From Escherichia coli O127:H6 str. E2348/69 (lineage in GTDB: Bacteria; Pseudomonadota; Gammaproteobacteria; Enterobacterales; Enterobacteriaceae): a stretch of 64,000 bases of DNA. Numbering within the stretch: position 1 is the stretch's first letter; every line of letters starts with the position of its first letter. Shown here piece by piece: positions 3,985 through 46,959 of this stretch. The position numbers and the translations under genes are program-made. The notes under the pieces were generated by a model. That model worked only from the letters and a program-made list of their open reading frames with translations, had not been told where the DNA came from and did no database searches. The stretch lies in the NCBI RefSeq assembly GCF_000026545.1, contig NC_011601.1; one strand, written 5' to 3'.

Positions 3985-5625
3985 ATGGCAATCCACAATC
4001 GTGCAGGCCAACCTGCACAACAGAGTGATTTGATTAACGTCGCCCAACTGACGGCGCAATATTATGTACTGAAACCAGAAGCAGGGAATGCGGAGCACGC
4101 GGTGAAATTCGGTACTTCCGGTCACCGTGGCAGTGCAGCGCGCCACAGCTTTAACGAGCCGCACATTCTGGCGATCGCTCAGGCAATTGCTGAAGAACGT
4201 GCGAAAAACGGCATCACTGGCCCTTGCTATGTGGGTAAAGATACTCACGCCCTGTCCGAGCCTGCGTTCATTTCCGTACTGGAAGTGCTGGCAGCGAACG
4301 GTGTTGATGTCATTGTGCAGGAAAACAATGGCTTCACTCCGACACCTGCCATTTCCAATGCCATTCTGGTTCACAATAAAAAAGGTGGCCCGCTGGCAGA
4401 CGGTATCGTGATTACACCGTCTCATAACCCGCCGGAAGATGGTGGTATCAAGTACAATCCGCCAAATGGTGGCCCGGCTGATACCAACGTCACTAAAGTG
4501 GTGGAAGACAAGGCCAACGCACTGATGGCTGATGGCCTGAAAGGCGTGAAGCGTATCTCCCTCGACGAAGCGATGGCATCCGGTCATGTGAAAGAGCAGG
4601 ATCTGGTGCAGCCGTTCGTGGAAGGGCTGGCCGATATCGTTGATATGGCAGCGATTCAGAAAGCGGGCCTGACGCTGGGTGTCGATCCGCTGGGCGGTTC
4701 TGGTATCGAATACTGGAAGCGTATTGGCGAGTATTACAACCTCAACCTGACCATCGTTAACGATCAGGTCGATCAAACCTTCCGCTTTATGCACCTAGAT
4801 AAAGACGGTGCGATCCGTATGGACTGCTCCTCCGAGTGTGCGATGGCGGGCCTGCTGGCACTGCGTGATAAGTTCGATCTGGCGTTTGCTAACGACCCGG
4901 ATTATGACCGTCACGGTATCGTCACTCCGGCAGGTTTGATGAATCCGAACCACTACCTGGCGGTGGCGATCAACTACCTGTTCCAGCATCGTCCGCAGTG
5001 GGGCAAAGATGTTGCTGTCGGTAAAACGCTGGTTTCATCTGCGATGATCGACCGTGTGGTCAATGATTTGGGCCGTAAGCTGGTAGAAGTACCGGTAGGT
5101 TTCAAATGGTTTGTTGATGGTTTGTTCGATGGCAGCTTCGGCTTTGGCGGCGAAGAGAGTGCAGGCGCTTCCTTCCTGCGTTTCGACGGCACGCCGTGGT
5201 CCACCGATAAAGACGGCATCATTATGTGTCTGCTGGCGGCGGAAATCACCGCTGTCACCGGTAAGAACCCGCAGGAACACTATAACGAACTGGCAAAACG
5301 CTTTGGTGCGCCGAGCTATAACCGTTTGCAGGCAGCAGCGACTTCCGCACAAAAAGCGGCGTTGTCTAAGCTGTCTCCGGAAATGGTGAGCGCCAGCACC
5401 CTGGCAGGTGACCCGATCACCGCGCGTCTGACGGTGGCACCGGGTAATGGCGCTTCTATCGGCGGTCTGAAAGTGATGACTGACAACGGCTGGTTCGCCG
5501 CGCGTCCGTCAGGCACGGAAGACGCATATAAGATCTACTGCGAAAGCTTCCTTGGTGAAGAACATCGCAAGCAGATTGAGAAAGAAGCGGTTGAGATTGT
5601 TAGCGAAGTTCTGAAAAACGCGTAA
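3985..5625 (+). CDS. pgm: Phosphoglucomutase
   Basis: 546 aa from [11 protein letters not shown]…; contains the TPSHNP phosphoserine loop; seqA-pgm operon arrangement. Confidence 0.95.
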
Positions 5626-39308: not shown

Positions 39309-40031
39309 TTATCGCGATGATTTTCGCTGCGCTATCAGGGTAAATTTATAGTCATCGGTATTAAAAGCGTTGCGGCTATATTCAAACACCCGGCCATCAA
39401 CTAAATATCCACGCGATACTTTTTCAAGAATCGGCTTAGTCTGGCTGATATTAAGCAGACGGCTCATTTCTTCGGTTGGCATCAGAGGAATGATTTCCTG
39501 TTCGCTACGATCGATAACCATTTTCTTCACTTCTTCAATAAAGTGATATTTCGAATTTTCCATGACCTGCCAGGTGAGATCCGGGAACAACGCAAGCGGC
39601 ATCCAGGTTTCTTCCAGCGCCATTGGCTTTTGCTTGCGATAGCGCACGCGCTTCACATGCCACACACGATCCTGTGGGGTGATTTGTAGCTGTTGCTGAA
39701 GAAAATCGTCAGCCGGAATCACTTCGAATATCAGAACTTCACTGTGTGTATCGACGTGACGGTCCGTCAGTTTTTCATCAAAACTGGTTAACTGAAAAAT
39801 ATCGTAATTGACCCGCTCTTCTTTTACGTAAGTCCCGCTGCCCTGAATACTTTCGAGGATCTGCTGTTCAACTAACTGGCGCAAAGCCTGACGCACCGTA
39901 ACCCGGCTGACGCCAAACTCTGTTTGTAGCGCTGATTCAGTGGGTAACGCATCGCCAGGTTTAAGCTCGCCACGCGCAATTTGCTCACGAATGCGATCAG
40001 CAATCTGTCGGTATAAGGGTTTCCGTCCCAT
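39309..40031 (-). CDS. mngR: GntR-family repressor MngR (FarR)
   Basis: 240-aa ORF with N-terminal GntR helix-turn-helix and UTRA-type effector domain. Confidence 0.93.
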   Translation of the reverse strand: MGRKPLYRQIADRIREQIARGELKPGDALPTESALQTEFGVSRVTVRQALRQLVEQQILESIQGSGTYVKEERVNYDIFQLTSFDEKLTDRHVDTHSEVLIFEVIPADDFLQQQLQITPQDRVWHVKRVRYRKQKPMALEETWMPLALFPDLTWQVMENSKYHFIEEVKKMVIDRSEQEIIPLMPTEEMSRLLNISQTKPILEKVSRGYLVDGRVFEYSRNAFNTDDYKFTLIAQRKSSR

Positions 40032-40140
40032 GATTTAGCATCTCATTAATACGAATTTAGCCATTATGCCCGATAAATTCATCCTGCAAATAATACAAAT
40101 ACAATACAAATAATTTCAATAAAGTGAAATTGATCACATA

Positions 40141-40531
40141 ATGGTGTTGTTTTATCGGGCACACTGGCGCGACTATAAAAACGATCAAGTGAGGATCATG
40201 ATGAATCTGACGACTCTGACCCACCGCGATGCGTTGTGTCTGAATGCGCGCTTTACCAGCCGTGAAGAGGCCATCCACGCGTTGACTCAACGTCTTGCTG
40301 CTCTGGGGAAAATTTCCAGTACTGAGCAATTTCTGAAAGAAGTGTATTGCCGTGAAAGCCTTGGCCCGACCGCCTTAGGTGAAGGGCTGGCTGTGCCGCA
40401 TGGCAAAACTGCTGCGGTAAAAGAAGCGGCGTTTGCGGTCGCCACACTCAGCGAGCCGCTTCAGTGGGAAGGCGTGGATGGCCCGGAAGCGGTTGATTTA
40501 GTGGTGTTGCTGGCGATTCCCCCCAATGAAG
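40141..40531 (+). pseudogene. mngA: mngA 5' fragment (PTS EIIA domain of the mannosylglycerate permease), truncated by the IS50-like element
   Basis: About 131 codons of the PTS fructose-type EIIA domain (…GLAVPHGKTAA… phospho-His region) run directly into the IS left end at 40532, where the frame continues into IS sequence and stops. Confidence 0.8.
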
Positions 40532-42081
40532 CTGTCTCTTATACACAAATCCCCACCCGGGGATTTGTGATGTCTGTCAGTCTGCTTTAGGGGGACTCTT
40601 TCCATCCGGTAGTTTCCTTCCTCCCCGGCAGCGATTTTTTGAACTTTTTCCTCACCCGTTGATCTTCTCTTATATTTCATTTTCTTCGGGTCTGTTATGG
40701 TACTTTCTGATTGTTATTCATGGGCTAACGAGCAGTTTGGACATGCCCGTCTCGGTGATCCGCGTCGTACACGACGCCTTGTGTCACTGGCCTCTTCTCT
40801 CGCTCAGCATGCAGGTCTTTCTATTGTGAAATCATCCCAGTCCACTGCTCAGGTTGAAGGTGCGTACCGCCTGATACGTAACCCGTCTGTGTCCCCGCAA
40901 GCCATTGCCGAAGCCGGATTTACCGCCACTGTAAGGGCATGTGAGGCTCATCCGCTGCTCCTCGCGCTGGAAGACACCACCACCATTAACTTCAGTCACA
41001 GTACGGCATCTGATGACCTGGGGAATACCACCACTAACCCGAAGACGCGCGGGCTGCTGGCTCACTCTGTCCTGATGTACGCCCCCGACAGCGCCCTGCC
41101 AGTCGGTCTTATCGAACAGCAGCGCTGGAGTCGTGCCACGGACACCTACGGTGTTAAGCACCAGCGAAAAGAACGTCCCTATGAAGAAAAAGAAAGTTAC
41201 CGCTGGCAGCAGGCTTCGGAGCGCATGGCCGAACGGCTGGGGGAGATACAGAAACGGGTAATCACTGTCTGTGACCGGGAAGCGGATATCTGGCATTACC
41301 TGCATTATAAAGTCAGCCACGGGCAGCGCTTCGTGGTGCGTGCAGCACAGAATCGCCGGCTGGAAGAAGCACCCGGCAAGCTCTTCGAACTGCCGGAAGT
41401 CCTGGCAACCGCGGGAAGCCACACGCTGAATGTGATGCAAAAAGGCGGGCGGGCAGCCCGCCAGGCCCGGATGTTCATCAGTTACAGCGAAGTCAGCATA
41501 AAAAATCCCGACAACAGCGGCCAGGCGCTCCCGCTCACGTATGTCTGTTGCCGGGAGCAGGCAGAGGACGGCGCCTGCTGGCATCTGCTGACGTCAGAAA
41601 AAGTGGCGAGTGCCGCCGATGCGCGACGTATCGTCAGCCATTACGAGCGACGCTGGCTGATAGAGGAATACCACAAGGCGTGGAAAAGTGGTGGTACATG
41701 TGTGGAATCGCTGCGAATGCAGACCCGGGATAACCTCGAGCGCATGGTGGTTATCAAGGCGTTTATCGCGGTGCGGGTGCTGGGCCTGCGGCAGGGCGGT
41801 ATCAGTGAAGAAACACAAAATGACAGCTGTGAGAAAATACTGACGCCGACAGAGTGGAAACTGCTGTGGGTTAAGCTGGAAGGAAAACCGCTTCCGTCAC
41901 AGATGCCGACACTGAAATGGGCCTGTCTGAAACTGGCGAAACTGGGGCGATGGCATGACAGCAAACGCACCGGTCGCCCCGGTTGGGTAGTCATGTGGGA
42001 TGGCTGGTTCAGACTTCAGGATATGGTTGAGGGTTACCTGGTGATGAAGTCTCTTGATCAGGAGATCTGATCAAGAGACAG
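40532..42081 (+). mobile_element. IS50-like insertion sequence (IS4 family), about 1.55 kb, with asymmetric OE-like and IE-like termini
   Basis: Left terminus CTGTCTCTTATACACAAAT (IS50 outside-end-like); right terminus on the complementary strand CTGTCTCTTGATCAGATCT (IS50 inside-end-like, two GATC sites); one 457-aa DDE transposase ORF fills the element; the 9 bp flanking the two ends differ (ccaatgaag vs cccgggcga), so there is no target-site duplication. Confidence 0.85.
40697..42070 (+). CDS. IS4-family (IS50/Tn5-like) DDE transposase
   Basis: 457-aa ORF; clear similarity to Tn5 transposase as recalled (LGDPRRT…, …LEDTT…, …VCDREADI…, …RWLIEEYHKAWKSG…), with all three DDE catalytic-residue contexts present. 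Confidence 0.85.
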   Translation: MVLSDCYSWANEQFGHARLGDPRRTRRLVSLASSLAQHAGLSIVKSSQSTAQVEGAYRLIRNPSVSPQAIAEAGFTATVRACEAHPLLLALEDTTTINFSHSTASDDLGNTTTNPKTRGLLAHSVLMYAPDSALPVGLIEQQRWSRATDTYGVKHQRKERPYEEKESYRWQQASERMAERLGEIQKRVITVCDREADIWHYLHYKVSHGQRFVVRAAQNRRLEEAPGKLFELPEVLATAGSHTLNVMQKGGRAARQARMFISYSEVSIKNPDNSGQALPLTYVCCREQAEDGACWHLLTSEKVASAADARRIVSHYERRWLIEEYHKAWKSGGTCVESLRMQTRDNLERMVVIKAFIAVRVLGLRQGGISEETQNDSCEKILTPTEWKLLWVKLEGKPLPSQMPTLKWACLKLAKLGRWHDSKRTGRPGWVVMWDGWFRLQDMVEGYLVMKSLDQEI

Positions 42082-42142
42082 CCCGGGCGAAGAGGGCTGC
42101 TTTGGTCCACGTCGATCCAATATCGACAGAGACGATTTGCAT
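42082..42142 (-). pseudogene. 20-codon 5' stub of a glmL/mutL-like gene (glutamate mutase reactivase component), cut by the IS right end
   Basis: Minus-strand ATG overlapping the glmS-like stop (TGATG) opens [20 protein letters not shown], an ASKHA-type N-terminal phosphate-1 motif, and runs directly into the IS end. Confidence 0.55.
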
Positions 42143-42591
42143 CAGATTGCCTCTTCAAGAATACGAGTATCAACGTCATGACGTTGGTTGATATCGTGGG
42201 CCATCAGCTGACAAACATCTTCTAAGTCATGACTTGGGGCAAAGACGCGATCAAATCCCATCTCTTTGAATTTGGTTTCCACGTCAGCGAAGTCATGTTT
42301 TCCGACCACCAGGTTACCGCCCACATAGAGCAGGATGTCCCCCAGTCCACGCTCGATGCAGCGTTCGCGCATGCCCAGACAGTCGATATCGCCATGCCCA
42401 TAGATAGAGGAGACGACAATCGCGTCAGCGCCAGTTTCAATGGCCGCATCAATATATTCGTCCTGGCTGACCATTACGCCCAGATTAATGACTCTGAAGC
42501 CATGGTTGCTAAAAACGCGGTCCAGAACTTTATTGCCTACTGCATGGCAGTCCGCGCCAATAACGCCAATCACAAGTGTTGCTTTCTTCAT
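42142..42591 (-). CDS. Methylaspartate (glutamate) mutase S-subunit-like cobalamin-binding protein
   Basis: 149 aa from [21 protein letters not shown]… with an AAGGA ribosome-binding site 7 nt upstream; carries the DxHxxG B12-binding motif (DCHAVG) and is closely similar to the clostridial GlmS/MutS S chain as I recall it. Confidence 0.75.
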
Positions 42592-43137
42592 GGGTAATCC
42601 TTTGTAAGACAGAGAGTAAAATAAGTTACACACGTCGTATTTATGGCCGTTCATAACGGCACAGGTTTAATATCACAGGAGTGTCTTTATCTGACCGTAA
42701 TGTTGCAATTGATCTATTTTCAAAATGTCTTTCGGGAAATGATTGTTTAAAGTATGTTGTTAAATTCTCATGTTAATTCAGTGTGTTATGTCAACTAATG
42801 TCATGAATGTTAAATTTTTAAAATTAACTTGATTTGGTGTATTGAGGTATTTGTGATCTACTTCTAATTTGCATTTTAGTGATATGGGTTTAGCCATGAG
42901 TAAATGCATTTCATAAAATTTAAGTCGAATTTCACTGCAATTCATCTCTGCTTAATGTAAAAATAATGTTGAAAATAACAAATGGTTAATGATTCATGCG
43001 AATTATGACCTTAGTTAGCTCTTTTGATTTTTCGTAAAAAAGAGAGGTACATGAAGGTGCTACCAGTATGAGTAACGTTAATCAAAGGTTTTATTACCTC
43101 TGGCAATAACGCAGGCCATTTTCGCGACTGGGTGGAT

Positions 43138-43560
43138 TTAATCAGTATAATCCTCATACAATAGTTCACGATTAACTGAACCGTTAACGGGGATTTGGTG
43201 TTGAAATTTAGAAATGGCGGAGTCAATTAATGAAGACAATATCGAAAAAATGACAGTGTCAGAATTAATTTCAATTAATCCTTCTCGTTGTTGACCAAAA
43301 AAGATATTTATCTTGATTTCATTTGTACTACGGCAATCAATATGTAGTAATTTTTGATCGCTGAGATTTTCTGTTTCATAAATGTTTTTGGCGATAGTCG
43401 GATGAATTGATGCCAGACATCTGCTCAGATAAGCCAGTTCCTTTAGGGAACACCCCGCTGAGTAGAGGATGTCAGAGAATTTTTGTGTGTCAACTGTTGT
43501 CTCTGAAGCGTATGTTGCATTGACAGGAAGGGTGTTGAAAGAGATTTGAGATGGGATCAT
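43138..43560 (-). CDS. Hypothetical protein, 140 aa, no recognisable domain; downstream gene of the AT-rich two-gene cassette
   Basis: ORF-track ORF MIPSQISFNTLPVNATYASE…; GGAAAG about 10 nt upstream; AT-rich codon usage unlike the flanking core genes; no signal peptide or TM segment apparent. Confidence 0.5.
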   Translation of the reverse strand: MIPSQISFNTLPVNATYASETTVDTQKFSDILYSAGCSLKELAYLSRCLASIHPTIAKNIYETENLSDQKLLHIDCRSTNEIKINIFFGQQREGLIEINSDTVIFSILSSLIDSAISKFQHQIPVNGSVNRELLYEDYTD

Positions 43561-43640
43561 TATTTAAATCTTTCCGTGAGTAATAAAAATTAATCCCCGG
43601 GCATTGTTTAGCAATATTTGCCACAGGGAATATATAAAAA

Positions 43641-44585
43641 TTAAAGTATTTGATTGGCATCGGTTAACTGATCAATAACCAGTGCCAGATTGGTAAACAT
43701 TTTGAAAAAGCGATACTGGCTCGGAATATCTCTTTCAAAGACGAAACATTCAATGTCATTGTTTGAAAAATAAAGGACTAGTGTTGCTGATTCGTCAGGA
43801 AAAATATGGAAATATATCTGGTTACCAGAAGGAGGATAGTCCAGAAGAAGGGTATCTTTGCCCGTCACATACCTGTTGTGGTCGTGGATGCTGCGCTCAC
43901 ACTTCATCAGAGGTGTCATGATACTCATGTATTCATCTGATGTTAATATATTAAAATCACCATCCATTTTAAAGAAACGATAAAGTAACAGTACATCCTC
44001 TTGCGTAACCGGTTCGTTTGTTTTTAGAGGGAAATAAGTGGGAACCAGAAGATGAGGTTCTAATCTATTTTGTTGAGCGCTATAACTAAATTTGAACATA
44101 AATTCCGGATCGCTCATCAATTGAGCGACATAATTATGCCTGGCTTCAAAAATTTTAACTTTTATCAGGTTAAATAAGTCTGTTTCGTCATCCTGTATTA
44201 AAAGACATTGGCCATAGCAGTCAGGCTTTTTTTCATTATAAGCAGAAACGGTTATTCTGTCAGGAGTGTCAACGTTATATCCAAAAGCCAGATAGTGACC
44301 GTCCTCATCGAGATTTGTTTCCAGGTTATTTAAATTTATCACATGAAGTGTTTGCAATGCTGATTCAATGAGCTGTTGACTCTCTGAGGTAAATGTTTCG
44401 CGCTGCGTTGTATAAAGTGTATCGATTCCAACGACTATCCGATATGGGTCAAGGATGGCGGCAATCATCTTTATTACCTGCACAGTCACGGGTGATGTCA
44501 TTGATTCGTTATCTGTTTTTAGAGGATCATTAGATGGCCAACCTGAGAAGCGATTGACAGCCGAACCGATATTATCAGGACTCAT
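43641..44585 (-). CDS. Hypothetical protein, 314 aa, no recognisable domain; upstream gene of the AT-rich two-gene cassette
   Basis: ORF-track ORF MSPDNIGSAVNRFSGWPSNDPL…; GAGG 8 nt upstream of the ATG; AT-rich; acidic, no TM segments; 80-bp gap to the 140-aa ORF on the same strand. Confidence 0.55.
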   Translation of the reverse strand: MSPDNIGSAVNRFSGWPSNDPLKTDNESMTSPVTVQVIKMIAAILDPYRIVVGIDTLYTTQRETFTSESQQLIESALQTLHVINLNNLETNLDEDGHYLAFGYNVDTPDRITVSAYNEKKPDCYGQCLLIQDDETDLFNLIKVKIFEARHNYVAQLMSDPEFMFKFSYSAQQNRLEPHLLVPTYFPLKTNEPVTQEDVLLLYRFFKMDGDFNILTSDEYMSIMTPLMKCERSIHDHNRYVTGKDTLLLDYPPSGNQIYFHIFPDESATLVLYFSNNDIECFVFERDIPSQYRFFKMFTNLALVIDQLTDANQIL

Positions 44586-45039
44586 AGCAGCAACCTCATT
44601 GTAATCAAGCGAGGCGCTGAGCGTACTCGGCTATAGAAAAACTAACTTGCAAAAATCGCTCATTTTTCATTTATCAGGCGAAAGTGGTCTCTGTTCACTC
44701 AGAAACAATCACTCCCGCTAAGTCATACCTGTTTCATCGATACATTTAAGTGATTATTACTAATGAAACAATAACATAACGGGCTTACGGCCGGTGCTCA
44801 TAAAGGCAACAATCAATTAACTTTGATAAAAATATGTTATGTAAAATAGCAACAAATTGGCTAATCTAATCAATTGGTATTATAAAAAGTGGATAAGGCG
44901 GTTCTGTTAAATAAAACACTGGTTTTTTATCTATACCTTTTCATTGTAATAATTGTGTTGCATAAATATTTCACAATAAATTAACAATAAAATCACCAAT
45001 GATCTATGGTTTATACATAATTAACATATTTGGTTGGTT

Positions 45040-45053
45040 TTGATATAAATCAA
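45040..45053. promoter_or_regulatory. FNR-box-like site (TTGAT-N4-ATCAA) in the cydAB upstream regulatory region
   Basis: ttgatataaatcaa is an exact match to the FNR half-site consensus spacing, within the long AT-rich cydA upstream region. Confidence 0.45.
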
Positions 45054-45390
45054 TTTTTAATTCTTGAAAAAAATCTGCAAAACACGATAAATTGTCGTAG
45101 ATCAAATTGGTGAGATCGTGACAATTTCGCTATAAATTGATCACTGTCGAAAAATGCAAATTTGCTCAATAAAAACCTGTTTATTGTAAGGATTTTGCGG
45201 CGTAATATAATTACGGGATCAATTTGGTTTATTCATTAACATATTTGTAACTTTTTTATCATTGTCTTTTCCTCTTTTGATGAAATGGCAACGATAGAGG
45301 CGAGCAAATAATTTTGTATTGGGGCATGCGTGTGACCCTTTCTAACGGGGTTCACTCTCGGAGTCTTCATGCGATGAGCAAGGAGTCATG

Positions 45391-46959
45391 ATGTTAGATA
45401 TAGTCGAACTGTCGCGCTTACAGTTTGCCTTGACCGCGATGTACCACTTCCTTTTTGTGCCACTGACGCTCGGTATGGCGTTCCTGCTGGCCATTATGGA
45501 AACGGTCTACGTCCTTTCCGGCAAACAGATTTATAAAGATATGACCAAGTTCTGGGGCAAGTTGTTTGGTATCAACTTCGCTCTGGGTGTGGCTACCGGT
45601 CTGACCATGGAGTTCCAGTTCGGGACTAACTGGTCTTACTATTCCCACTATGTAGGGGATATCTTCGGTGCGCCGCTGGCAATCGAAGGTCTGATGGCCT
45701 TCTTCCTCGAATCCACCTTTGTAGGTCTGTTCTTCTTCGGTTGGGATCGTCTGGGTAAAGTTCAGCATATGTGTGTCACCTGGCTGGTGGCGCTCGGTTC
45801 AAACCTGTCCGCACTGTGGATTCTGGTTGCGAACGGCTGGATGCAAAACCCAATCGCGTCCGATTTCAACTTTGAAACTATGCGTATGGAGATGGTGAGC
45901 TTCTCCGAGCTGGTGCTTAACCCGGTTGCTCAGGTGAAATTCGTTCACACTGTAGCGTCTGGTTATGTGACTGGCGCGATGTTCATCCTCGGTATCAGCG
46001 CATGGTATATGCTGAAAGGTCGTGACTTCGCCTTCGCTAAACGCTCCTTTGCTATCGCTGCCAGCTTCGGTATGGCTGCCGTTCTGTCTGTTATTGTTCT
46101 GGGTGATGAATCTGGTTACGAAATGGGCGACGTGCAGAAAACCAAACTGGCTGCTATTGAAGCCGAGTGGGAAACGCAACCTGCGCCTGCTGCCTTTACT
46201 CTGTTCGGCATTCCTGATCAGGAAGAGGAGACGAACAAATTTGCGATCCAGATCCCTTACGCGCTGGGCATCATTGCAACGCGTTCCGTGGATACTCCAG
46301 TTATCGGCCTGAAAGAACTGATGGTGCAGCATGAAGAACGCATTCGTAACGGGATGAAGGCGTACTCTCTGCTCGAGCAACTGCGTTCTGGTTCTACCGA
46401 CCAGGCGGTTCGTGACCAGTTCAATAGCATGAAGAAAGACCTCGGTTACGGTCTGCTGCTGAAACGCTATACGCCAAACGTGGCTGATGCGACTGAAGCG
46501 CAGATTCAACAGGCAACCAAAGACTCCATTCCGCGTGTAGCGCCGCTGTACTTCGCGTTCCGTATTATGGTGGCGTGTGGCTTCCTGCTGCTGGCAATCA
46601 TCGCGCTCTCTTTCTGGAGTGTCATCCGCAACCGCATTGGCGAGAAAAAATGGCTGCTGCGCGCCGCGCTGTACGGTATTCCGCTGCCGTGGATTGCTGT
46701 AGAAGCGGGCTGGTTCGTGGCTGAATATGGCCGCCAACCGTGGGCTATCGGTGAAGTGCTGCCGACAGCTGTGGCGAACTCGTCACTGACCGCAGGCGAT
46801 CTCATCTTCTCAATGGTGCTGATTTGCGGCCTGTATACCCTGTTCCTGGTGGCAGAATTGTTCTTAATGTTCAAGTTTGCACGCCTCGGCCCAAGCAGCC
46901 TGAAAACCGGTCGCTATCACTTTGAGCAGTCTTCCACGACTACTCAGCCGGCACGCTAA
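45391..46959 (+). CDS. cydA: Cytochrome bd-I ubiquinol oxidase subunit I
   Basis: 522 aa from [28 protein letters not shown]…; the supplied ORF starts one Met earlier. Confidence 0.96.

Follow-up and report, generated by a model that had tools for sequence, protein, structure and literature searches.

The 546-bp gap in front of glmS in Escherichia coli O127:H6 str. E2348/69 is most probably free of genes and made up of two parts of different origin. The proximal 406 bp would be the control region and the mRNA leader of the operon for the methylaspartate pathway, which serves glutamate fermentation. The distal 140 bp would be the untranslated tail of an Escherichia-specific island of two genes, inserted between the control regions of cydA and glmS. 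We regard this reading of the sequence as probable when taken as a whole, jointly with the mechanism proposed below. The window analyzed here is a stretch of 64,000 nt (64 kb), and the coordinates of its relevant features are collected in Table 1. The practical message for this window is that the gap is probably an orphaned control region and not a missed gene.

Table 1. Features of the gap between the 140-aa ORF and glmS and of its surroundings (positions in the 64-kb window; genes and motifs with descending coordinates are given in their reading direction).
Feature	Position	Strand	Remarks
Gap between 140-aa ORF and glmS	42592-43137		546 bp, 32.6% GC, probably gene-free
Ancestral DNA upstream of glmS, putatively regulatory	42592-42997	minus	406 bp; blastn, 76% identity to E. 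whittamii
Island tail, 3' flank of the 140-aa orphan gene	42998-43137	minus	most variable part of the gap
140-aa ORF	43560-43138	minus	
glmS (methylaspartate/glutamate mutase subunit S, B12-binding domain)	42591-42142	minus	intact, only surviving gene of the operon
glmL, first 60 nt	42082-42141	minus	cut by ISEc13 end at 42081
Shine-Dalgarno AAAGGA	42598-42603	minus	6 nt before the glmS ATG at 42591
Predicted 5' leader	42592-42673	minus	about 82 nt, AU-rich; start at about 42673 ± 2 predicted from the hexamers
Leader hairpin GCCGTT-ATGA-ACGGC	42646-42660	minus	not better than chance
Conserved TATTAA in leader	42672-42667	minus	second candidate -10; TG two bases upstream in E. coli
-10-like hexamer GACACT	42680-42685	minus	elsewhere SAMAYT: GAAACT, CACACT, CACATT, CATATT
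-35-like hexamer TTGCAA	42703-42708	minus	TTGYNN in all genera; begins with the last four bases of the box
Invariant box TTGAAAATAGATCAATTGC	42723-42705	minus	19 nt; overlaps -35-like element; pseudo-palindrome YTGAW-N5-ATCAA
Upstream extension of the box, block C, AACAATCATTTCCCGAAAGACAT	42724-42747	minus	ATCATTTT and AAGAT conserved; identity 0.70
Block B CATAACACACTGAATTAAC	42772-42790	minus	invariant among E. coli alleles; TG core invariant across genera
Block A AAATTAGAAGTAGATCACAAAT, CRP-like 22-mer	42849-42870	minus	identity 0.70 vs 0.43 in flank
55-aa ORF	42778-42945	minus	rejected as gene
71-aa ORF	43011-43226	minus	rejected as gene

The gene order in the window is sucCD - mngR - truncated mngA - ISEc13 - glmS - gap - 140-aa ORF - 314-aa ORF - cydAB. 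With 32.6% GC, the gap is poorer in GC than the window as a whole (51.3%), and an AT content this high is reached by only 1.1% of windows of 546 bp. Within the gap, the GC content varies between 25.8% and 37%, with the minimum at 42746-42997. The preliminary description of this DNA had reported an AT-rich gap of 546 bp lacking a convincing ORF, and its coordinates, the base composition and the absence of a gene-like ORF were all reproduced. The homopolymeric A/T tracts mentioned there are present but modest, namely four runs of 5-6 bases each. The 71-aa ORF on the minus strand likewise exists, but it is not the only one, as the 55-aa ORF on the same strand and two plus-strand ORFs of 31-35 aa had been missed. 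DNA matching the gap was found in 1135 of 5426 complete E. coli genomes with identities of 88.8-100%. In the RefSeq records listed for these carriers no annotation lies under the match.

The product of glmS begins with MKKATLVIG and is 100% identical to GlmS of strains with a complete cluster (WP_000710397.1). In E. coli IAI39, the same 546 bp stand ahead of an intact operon of eight genes, glmS-glmL-glmE-mal (methylaspartate ammonia-lyase) followed by genes for an AtuA family protein, a DUF4387 protein and a dicarboxylate/amino-acid symporter and by fumD (class I fumarase). In E2348/69, the 546 bp are also located ahead of glmS, and ISEc13 follows. Homology of the window to IAI39 begins at 42082, 60 nt into glmL. 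The junction between ISEc13 and glmL was detected in only three of the 5426 complete E. coli genomes, which are E2348/69 and two O127:H6 records. ISEc13 has deleted the operon beyond glmS in the EPEC lineage E2348/69, and the promoter region is orphaned. The mutase operon was therefore correctly described as decayed before, since only glmS and 60 nt of glmL remain next to the insertion element.

The enzymes and genes of the methylaspartate pathway cluster for glutamate fermentation were described in E. coli O157:H7, and all attempts to find a condition under which the cluster is expressed failed (Kronen and Berg, 2015; PMC4682846). The word "promoter" does not occur in the text of that article. 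The methylaspartate clusters of Clostridium and Enterobacteriaceae treated there contain the same operon, of which only glmS survives in this window. No further study of the cluster turned up in the literature searched, where queries for locus tags, expression, transcription starts, H-NS ChIP or hns mutants also gave no match for the locus. About one fifth of the complete E. coli genomes (the 1135 carriers) possess this B12-dependent cluster, including O157:H7 and other pathogens. It is also found in many Klebsiella, Citrobacter and Yersinia.

The border between the two parts of the gap was located by comparison with related genomes. In Klebsiella, Citrobacter, Salmonella arizonae and E. whittamii, cydAB is divergently oriented to glmS, the intergenic region comprises 1.2-1.4 kb and the two orphan genes are absent. 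On the side of cydA, homology to E. whittamii (blastn) extends from 45500 to 44745, and on that of glmS from 42997 to 42510. The 1747 bp in between (42998-44744) stand in place of 320 bp of E. whittamii sequence. Since homology breaks off at 42997/42998 and is resumed at 44745, the proximal 406 bp are considered ancestral and the distal 140 bp as the tail of the inserted island. The ancestral part corresponds to the glmS side of the cydA-glmS intergenic region of E. whittamii, and its proximal portion is also homologous in Klebsiella and Citrobacter. The island of about 1.75 kb carries the 140-aa and the 314-aa ORF and has a GC content of 38%. Homologues of the two encoded proteins were found only in Escherichia and Shigella, and searches of both proteins against Pfam, NCBIfam, PADLOC and PDB gave no match.

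Ten E. coli alleles of the gap (88.8-100% identity) were compared to identify regions of strong or weak conservation. The proximal 155 bp or so, from 42592 to approximately 42745, contain 0-4% variable columns, compared with 6.4% in glmS itself, 14-24% upstream of approximately 42745 and 30-37%, together with indels, in the island tail. Inside the otherwise variable upstream part, the core of block A and block B are invariant or nearly so. The flank of the Shine-Dalgarno sequence, GGATTACCC, is also conserved across genera with a pairwise identity of 0.86.

The most strongly conserved element is the box located directly upstream of the -35-like hexamer. A GlmS scan of species-representative genomes yielded 80 loci, and the box is present with 0-1 mismatch in every Enterobacteriaceae locus having a match. 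Divergent versions occur in two loci, labelled Enterobacter sp. ENT03 and Yokenella. An alignment of 23 sequences from Escherichia, Klebsiella, Citrobacter, Salmonella, Pluralibacter, Lelliottia, Enterobacter, Buttiauxella and Pseudescherichia shows 17 consecutive invariant columns (TGAAAATAGATCAATTG) over these about nine genera. Pairwise identity is 0.98 in the box vs 0.47 in the whole alignment. At the sensitivity of BLAST, a 38-nt stretch including the box is found once per E. coli genome, and no base of it differs in 1131 of the 1135 carriers. In the 64-kb window the box is present once (0.03 copies expected), with no further copy at up to 3 mismatches, and it occurs once per fetched locus that has it. 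No regulon was thus found from which the binding factor could be named.

Conservation of the arrangement extends beyond these genera. Recognisable variants of the box with the same spacing to the -10-like hexamer are present in Yersinia, Budvicia, Hafnia, Morganella and Yokenella, and one such variant reads CTGAYAATAWATCAATTGT followed by CACATT 17 nt later. Further upstream, TTTTTCAAGAT is common to these five genera as well, resulting in the pattern GAT-N13-ATC. With this pattern, the box extension can be followed across most of the order Enterobacterales.

The two hexamers next to the box show a similarly fixed geometry. The distance from TTGYNN to the -10-like hexamer is exactly 17 bp in every matched locus, and in all of them the latter has A as its second and T as its sixth base. 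The sequence of the 17-bp spacer is free to vary, with a pairwise identity of 0.45. Sigma-70 promoters consist of TTGACA and TATAAT at a distance of 16-18 bp, with A at -11 and T at -7. The fixed 17-bp distance, the diagnostic -10 positions and the free spacer thus correspond to the signature of such a promoter. By phylogenetic footprinting alone, the best reading of TTGCAA and GACACT is a candidate sigma-70 promoter. The conserved hexamers could instead be half-sites of an operator and not -35 and -10 elements. Only 7 of the 12 consensus positions are matched, so that the site was not called by the promoter scan, which needs 9 of 12. This weak match also points to a probable dependence on an activator.

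The prediction of promoters and terminators suggested in the preliminary description was carried out for a stretch of 1.6 kb. It returned three promoter-like sites (one of them in the gap) compared with 5.5 ± 2.5 in shuffled sequences, and no terminator-like site. The assumption of a promoter region of the decayed mutase operon gains its support from the cis-elements conserved across genera and the promoter-like arrangement close to glmS, ahead of the operon cut by ISEc13.

In the proposed mechanism, sigma-70 RNA polymerase would use the weak promoter formed by TTGCAA, a 17-bp spacer and GACACT, probably in dependence on an activator. This activator would bind to the invariant box TTGAAAATAGATCAA, which abuts and overlaps the -35 element and, given a start near 42673, covers approximately -50 to -36. 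Such a position is used by class II activators like FNR and CRP, whose sites in class II promoters are centred near -41.5 and overlap a poor -35 element. The box extension, block B and the CRP-like site about 140 bp further up may provide extra inputs, for example catabolite or anaerobic control. From such a start the mRNA would carry a leader of about 82 nt that is AU-rich and unstructured and has AAAGGA placed 6 nt ahead of the glmS ATG. Of the operon, only GlmS and a GlmL stub of 20 codons could still be made from this promoter in the E2348/69 lineage, where transcription then runs into ISEc13.

The arrangement resembles class II FNR or CRP promoters, such as the anaerobic E. coli promoters of the pfl, nar and dms operons, in several respects. 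The weak hexamers are spaced by 17 bp, a site similar to an inverted repeat ends in a perfect ATCAA right above the -35 element, and the operon belongs to anaerobic fermentative metabolism. In contrast to FNR sites, the half-sites of the box (YTGAW-N5-ATCAA) are separated by 5 bp and not by 4 bp. Furthermore, the left half-site is poor and the conservation runs about 25 bp further upstream.

Assignment of the box to FNR (TTGAT-N4-ATCAA) was rejected, as ATCAA is perfect but the left half at N4 spacing, TGAAA, matches only 2 of 5 positions. In all genera alike, a good left half-site (TTGAA, CTGAT) is seen with N5 spacing only. CRP (TGTGA-N6-TCACA) was rejected as well, since the box read in the CRP frame has a spacing of N7 instead of N6. 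Because the half-sites are one bp too far apart in every genus, the box was not filed as an FNR or CRP site. With regard to sigma-54, sigma-32, IHF, ArcA, Fur, Lrp, ArgR, Cra, KdgR, OxyR and PhoB, we know of no consensus that fits the box convincingly, and these comparisons served as leads only. The 140-aa and 314-aa proteins were also considered as the cognate factor and discarded, as they are absent from genera that keep the box. A search for the box sequence in the literature searched gave only irrelevant eukaryotic matches. The conserved operator/promoter appears to be undescribed, while an intergenic promoter region is in itself an ordinary kind of feature.

Tentatively, the extended box of about 40 bp (AAGAT-N13-ATCAATTGY) may be the operator of a transcription factor of the core genome which has not yet been linked to this operon, an idea that we consider possible but rather doubtful. 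If it were true, such a factor would be the missing switch explaining the apparent silence of the cluster in pathogenic E. coli under laboratory conditions. The box could be used as bait for the regulator and as a target for mutations in reporter fusions. Identification of the regulator would show when gut enterobacteria ferment glutamate. As a side observation, the half-sites of the extended box have the geometry TGA-N7-TCA, which is neither that of FNR nor that of CRP.

Of the two upstream blocks, block A is similar to a CRP site. It reads TTAGA-N6-TCACA compared with TGTGA-N6-TCACA for CRP, and none of the 23 sequences deviates from TCAC. Of the 22 positions of the CRP consensus AAATGTGATCTAGATCACATTT, Buttiauxella matches 15 and the window 14. 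The right half TCACA (5 of 5) and the flank TAGATCACA are perfect, whereas the left half (TTAGA or TAAGA) reaches only 3 of 5. Unlike usual class I or class II CRP sites, block A is located far from the predicted start, about 180 bp upstream.

The low GC content also allows for a different emphasis, in which the gap is mainly a silencing platform bound by H-NS on AT-rich, horizontally acquired DNA, so that the operon stays off. Silencing of the H-NS type had been put forward in the preliminary description. This is compatible with the promoter model, and silencing of the gap by H-NS is plausible from its AT-richness. As the principal role of the gap it is a serious possibility that nevertheless stays short of probable. 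The composition (32.6% GC overall, minimum 25.8%) is that of an H-NS target, and the adjacent orphan island with its 38% GC is similar. Low GC, variable presence and an apparently silent operon are likewise known from bgl and LEE1, which are silenced by H-NS. The operon is restricted to the 1135 carriers among the 5426 E. coli genomes, and the failure to observe expression in O157:H7 under any condition tried (PMC4682846) would fit as well. However, the H-NS nucleation motif is not enriched, with 19 occurrences in the window vs 15.5 expected and a single near-match in the gap. Non-specific binding to AT tracts also does not predict that the box is invariant base by base across genera. Unlike in bgl and LEE1, this sequence-specific conservation across genera points to sites of a dedicated regulator and not to composition only.

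Another promoter may be formed by TATTAA in the leader, an extended -10 element with TG in E. coli, which would shift the transcription start downstream by about 10 nt. In that case a small hairpin would stand at the very beginning of the mRNA and protect its 5' end, and GACACTCC and the box would both act as operators. TATTAA has a pairwise identity of 0.74, its distance from the preceding GACACT-type hexamer is exactly 7 bp in most genera, and a hairpin of variable sequence is located downstream of it in many genera. However, the hexamer lacks T at position 6, and no conserved -35 element is present 17 bp upstream. It is changed to AGTTAA in Buttiauxella (no A at position 2), to CATTAT in Pluralibacter and to TATTCC in Pseudescherichia. 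The hairpin, which occupies the same leader position with different sequences, is missing in C. amalonaticus, Lelliottia and Enterobacter. Over 36 sequences it has a mean z of -0.56, with only 6 of 36 below -1.5. A start from TATTAA is therefore unlikely, and the start near 42673 is preferred. The impression by eye of a covarying leader hairpin was given up for the same mean z, its absence in several genera and the lack of a consensus in RNAalifold.

Glutamate mutase depends on adenosylcobalamin, and operons related to B12 often have cobalamin riboswitches. The leader of about 82 nt with its hairpin might therefore be a structured RNA sensing cobalamin or glutamate (riboswitch or attenuator), or the gap might encode an independent small RNA, as the preliminary description had considered. 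Like the cobalamin riboswitch (RF00174), it is a non-coding leader before the gene of a B12-dependent enzyme. In contrast to RF00174, it is too short and has no conserved fold, and the model itself gave no match at E ≤ 10. The covariance search proposed earlier for structured RNA (cmscan, 40000-46000, 4227 Rfam families, E ≤ 10) revealed no match in the gap. It returned only three chance matches, to two miRNA families and one snoRNA family, none of them within the gap. The E. coli leader does not fold better than shuffled sequences (z -0.49), and its identity across genera is only 0.41. For the leaders of 16 genera, RNAalifold predicted 3 pairs with 0 compensatory changes at -1.6 kcal/mol and thus no consensus structure. 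With regard to a small RNA, the lack of a terminator-like site and the number of promoter-like sites, which is not above that of shuffled sequences, also argue against it. Esr41, a small RNA of EHEC considered as a possible resident, was dismissed, as it maps to OI-43 between z1181 and z1182 in O157. Both the structured leader and the small RNA are thus very improbable.

Finally, the gap could hide a small gene, either one of the 55-aa, 71-aa and 31-35-aa ORFs or a 21-codon N-terminal extension of GlmS from the in-frame ATG at 42654. Candidate ORFs exist, and the 55-aa ORF is interrupted in only one of the 10 alleles. In two RefSeq records, moreover, the locus tags leave out one number between glmS and the 140-aa gene, which hints at a withdrawn ORF call. 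The coding potential was tested by ORF integrity and by the number of variable sites at the three codon positions among the 10 alleles. The controls show the expected excess at the third position, with 6/3/20 for glmS and 19/13/34 for the 140-aa gene. In 8 of 10 alleles the 71-aa ORF is interrupted by internal stops, and 5 of these alleles carry a frameshift in it. In the most divergent allele, the 55-aa ORF has a frameshift and three stops, and the variation of this ORF is distributed as 9/12/12. The plus-strand ORFs and the extension of GlmS stay open only because they are located inside the invariant block, and their few changes fall on codon positions 1 and 2. In other genera no ORF is conserved, and the indels there are not multiples of three. 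The undetected short peptide suggested earlier is not supported by these ORFs, which are either broken in other alleles or without third-position bias. A conserved coding gene across the gap was not found either, with no Pfam match for the gap ORFs and nothing annotated in the RefSeq records listed. A hidden gene is hence extremely improbable.

The island tail differs from the rest of the gap. The different origin of these distal 140 bp had been overlooked in the preliminary description. No intrinsic terminator of the 140-aa gene was detected in this 3' flank, and its hairpins are AU-rich and have no U tail. The inner hairpins are not kept, and the sequence is not conserved. The RNA of the island tail folds better than shuffled sequences (z -2.87), an observation of low weight. 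Part of the fold is a long-range stem between the two arms of an imperfect inverted repeat (about 43125-43111 and 43006-42992), and one of these arms is located at the boundary of the island.

Between the control regions of cydA and glmS, an island was identified which carries two genes on the minus strand. The two encoded products of 140 aa and 314 aa gave no matches in Pfam, NCBIfam, PADLOC or PDB, and homologues of both are confined to Escherichia and Shigella, those of the 314-aa ORF with an identity of at least 65%. The island is missing in E. whittamii, Klebsiella, Citrobacter and Salmonella. For the 140-aa ORF, the variable sites are distributed over the three codon positions as 19/13/34, which is a coding signature. 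The 140-aa and 314-aa ORFs are an orphan gene pair.

Coordinates of features in the window
Feature	Position	Strand	Remarks
ISEc13	40590-42081		IS4 family, related to IS50; junction 42081/42082
Island	42998-44744		1.75 kb, 38% GC; between control regions of cydA and glmS
140-aa ORF	43138-43560	minus	island gene
314-aa ORF	43641-44585	minus	island gene
AT-rich stretch upstream of cydA	44586-45387		GC 0.23-0.31 around 44800-45300

Downstream of the 140-aa ORF, an imperfect inverted repeat of 15 bp (arms TCGCGAAAATGGCCT and AGGTCATAATTCGCA, at approximately 43111-43125 and 42992-43006) encloses about 105 bp, and one of its arms sits on the boundary between island and ancestral DNA (42997/42998). 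The divergent allele L003 has changes in each arm, but the pairing is mostly retained. Either a scar left by the insertion or a structure in the 3' part of the mRNA could account for the repeat. In the RefSeq annotations of two other genomes, the locus tags jump between glmS and the 140-aa gene, from SS17_RS03960 to RS03970 in O157:H7 SS17 (L009) and from AM446_RS19515 to RS19505 in AR_0067 (L008). One number is thus missing precisely at the gap, the AT-rich DNA between the two genes, which suggests that an ORF was formerly called there and later withdrawn.

Besides this gap, the stretch upstream of cydA is the only other extremely AT-rich one in the window. The second island boundary (44744/44745) falls inside it. 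Its cydA-proximal part (about 45042-45266) is nearly invariant across E. coli alleles, as expected for the complex control region of cydAB.

On the other side of glmS, a copy of ISEc13 links a truncated mngA to codon 20 of glmL. The 3' end of mngA and the operon genes fumD through glmL were removed by ISEc13; mngB, the neighbour of mngA in K-12, was presumably lost as well. The exact junction was found in 3 of 5426 complete genomes, all of them E2348/69 or O127:H6, and this ISEc13 end has matches at 27-30 places in those genomes.

An insertion of about 110 nt was observed in the glmS leader of Citrobacter amalonaticus S646 (L021, 4801-5000) and Budvicia aquatica (L047, about 4930-4975). It includes GCCAACGCATCTGCAACCTGAAGTATGACGAG, which we take to resemble an ERIC (enterobacterial repetitive intergenic consensus) element, and folds strongly (-44.6 kcal/mol for the 198-nt leader). 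Judged from this insertion, the distance between promoter and start codon of glmS is not constrained.

Copies of glmS also occur in metagenome assemblies. A contig labelled 'Collinsella sp.' (L012) encodes a product 98% identical to GlmS of the window, with the same box, the invariant motif upstream of glmS, and an upstream leader differing in one base. Collinsella is an actinobacterium, and the assignment is probably a binning error. HRGM_Genome_0066, a 'Citrobacter sp.' assembly, contains E. coli-type and C. amalonaticus-type copies together (L011/L019) and is therefore probably a mixed bin.
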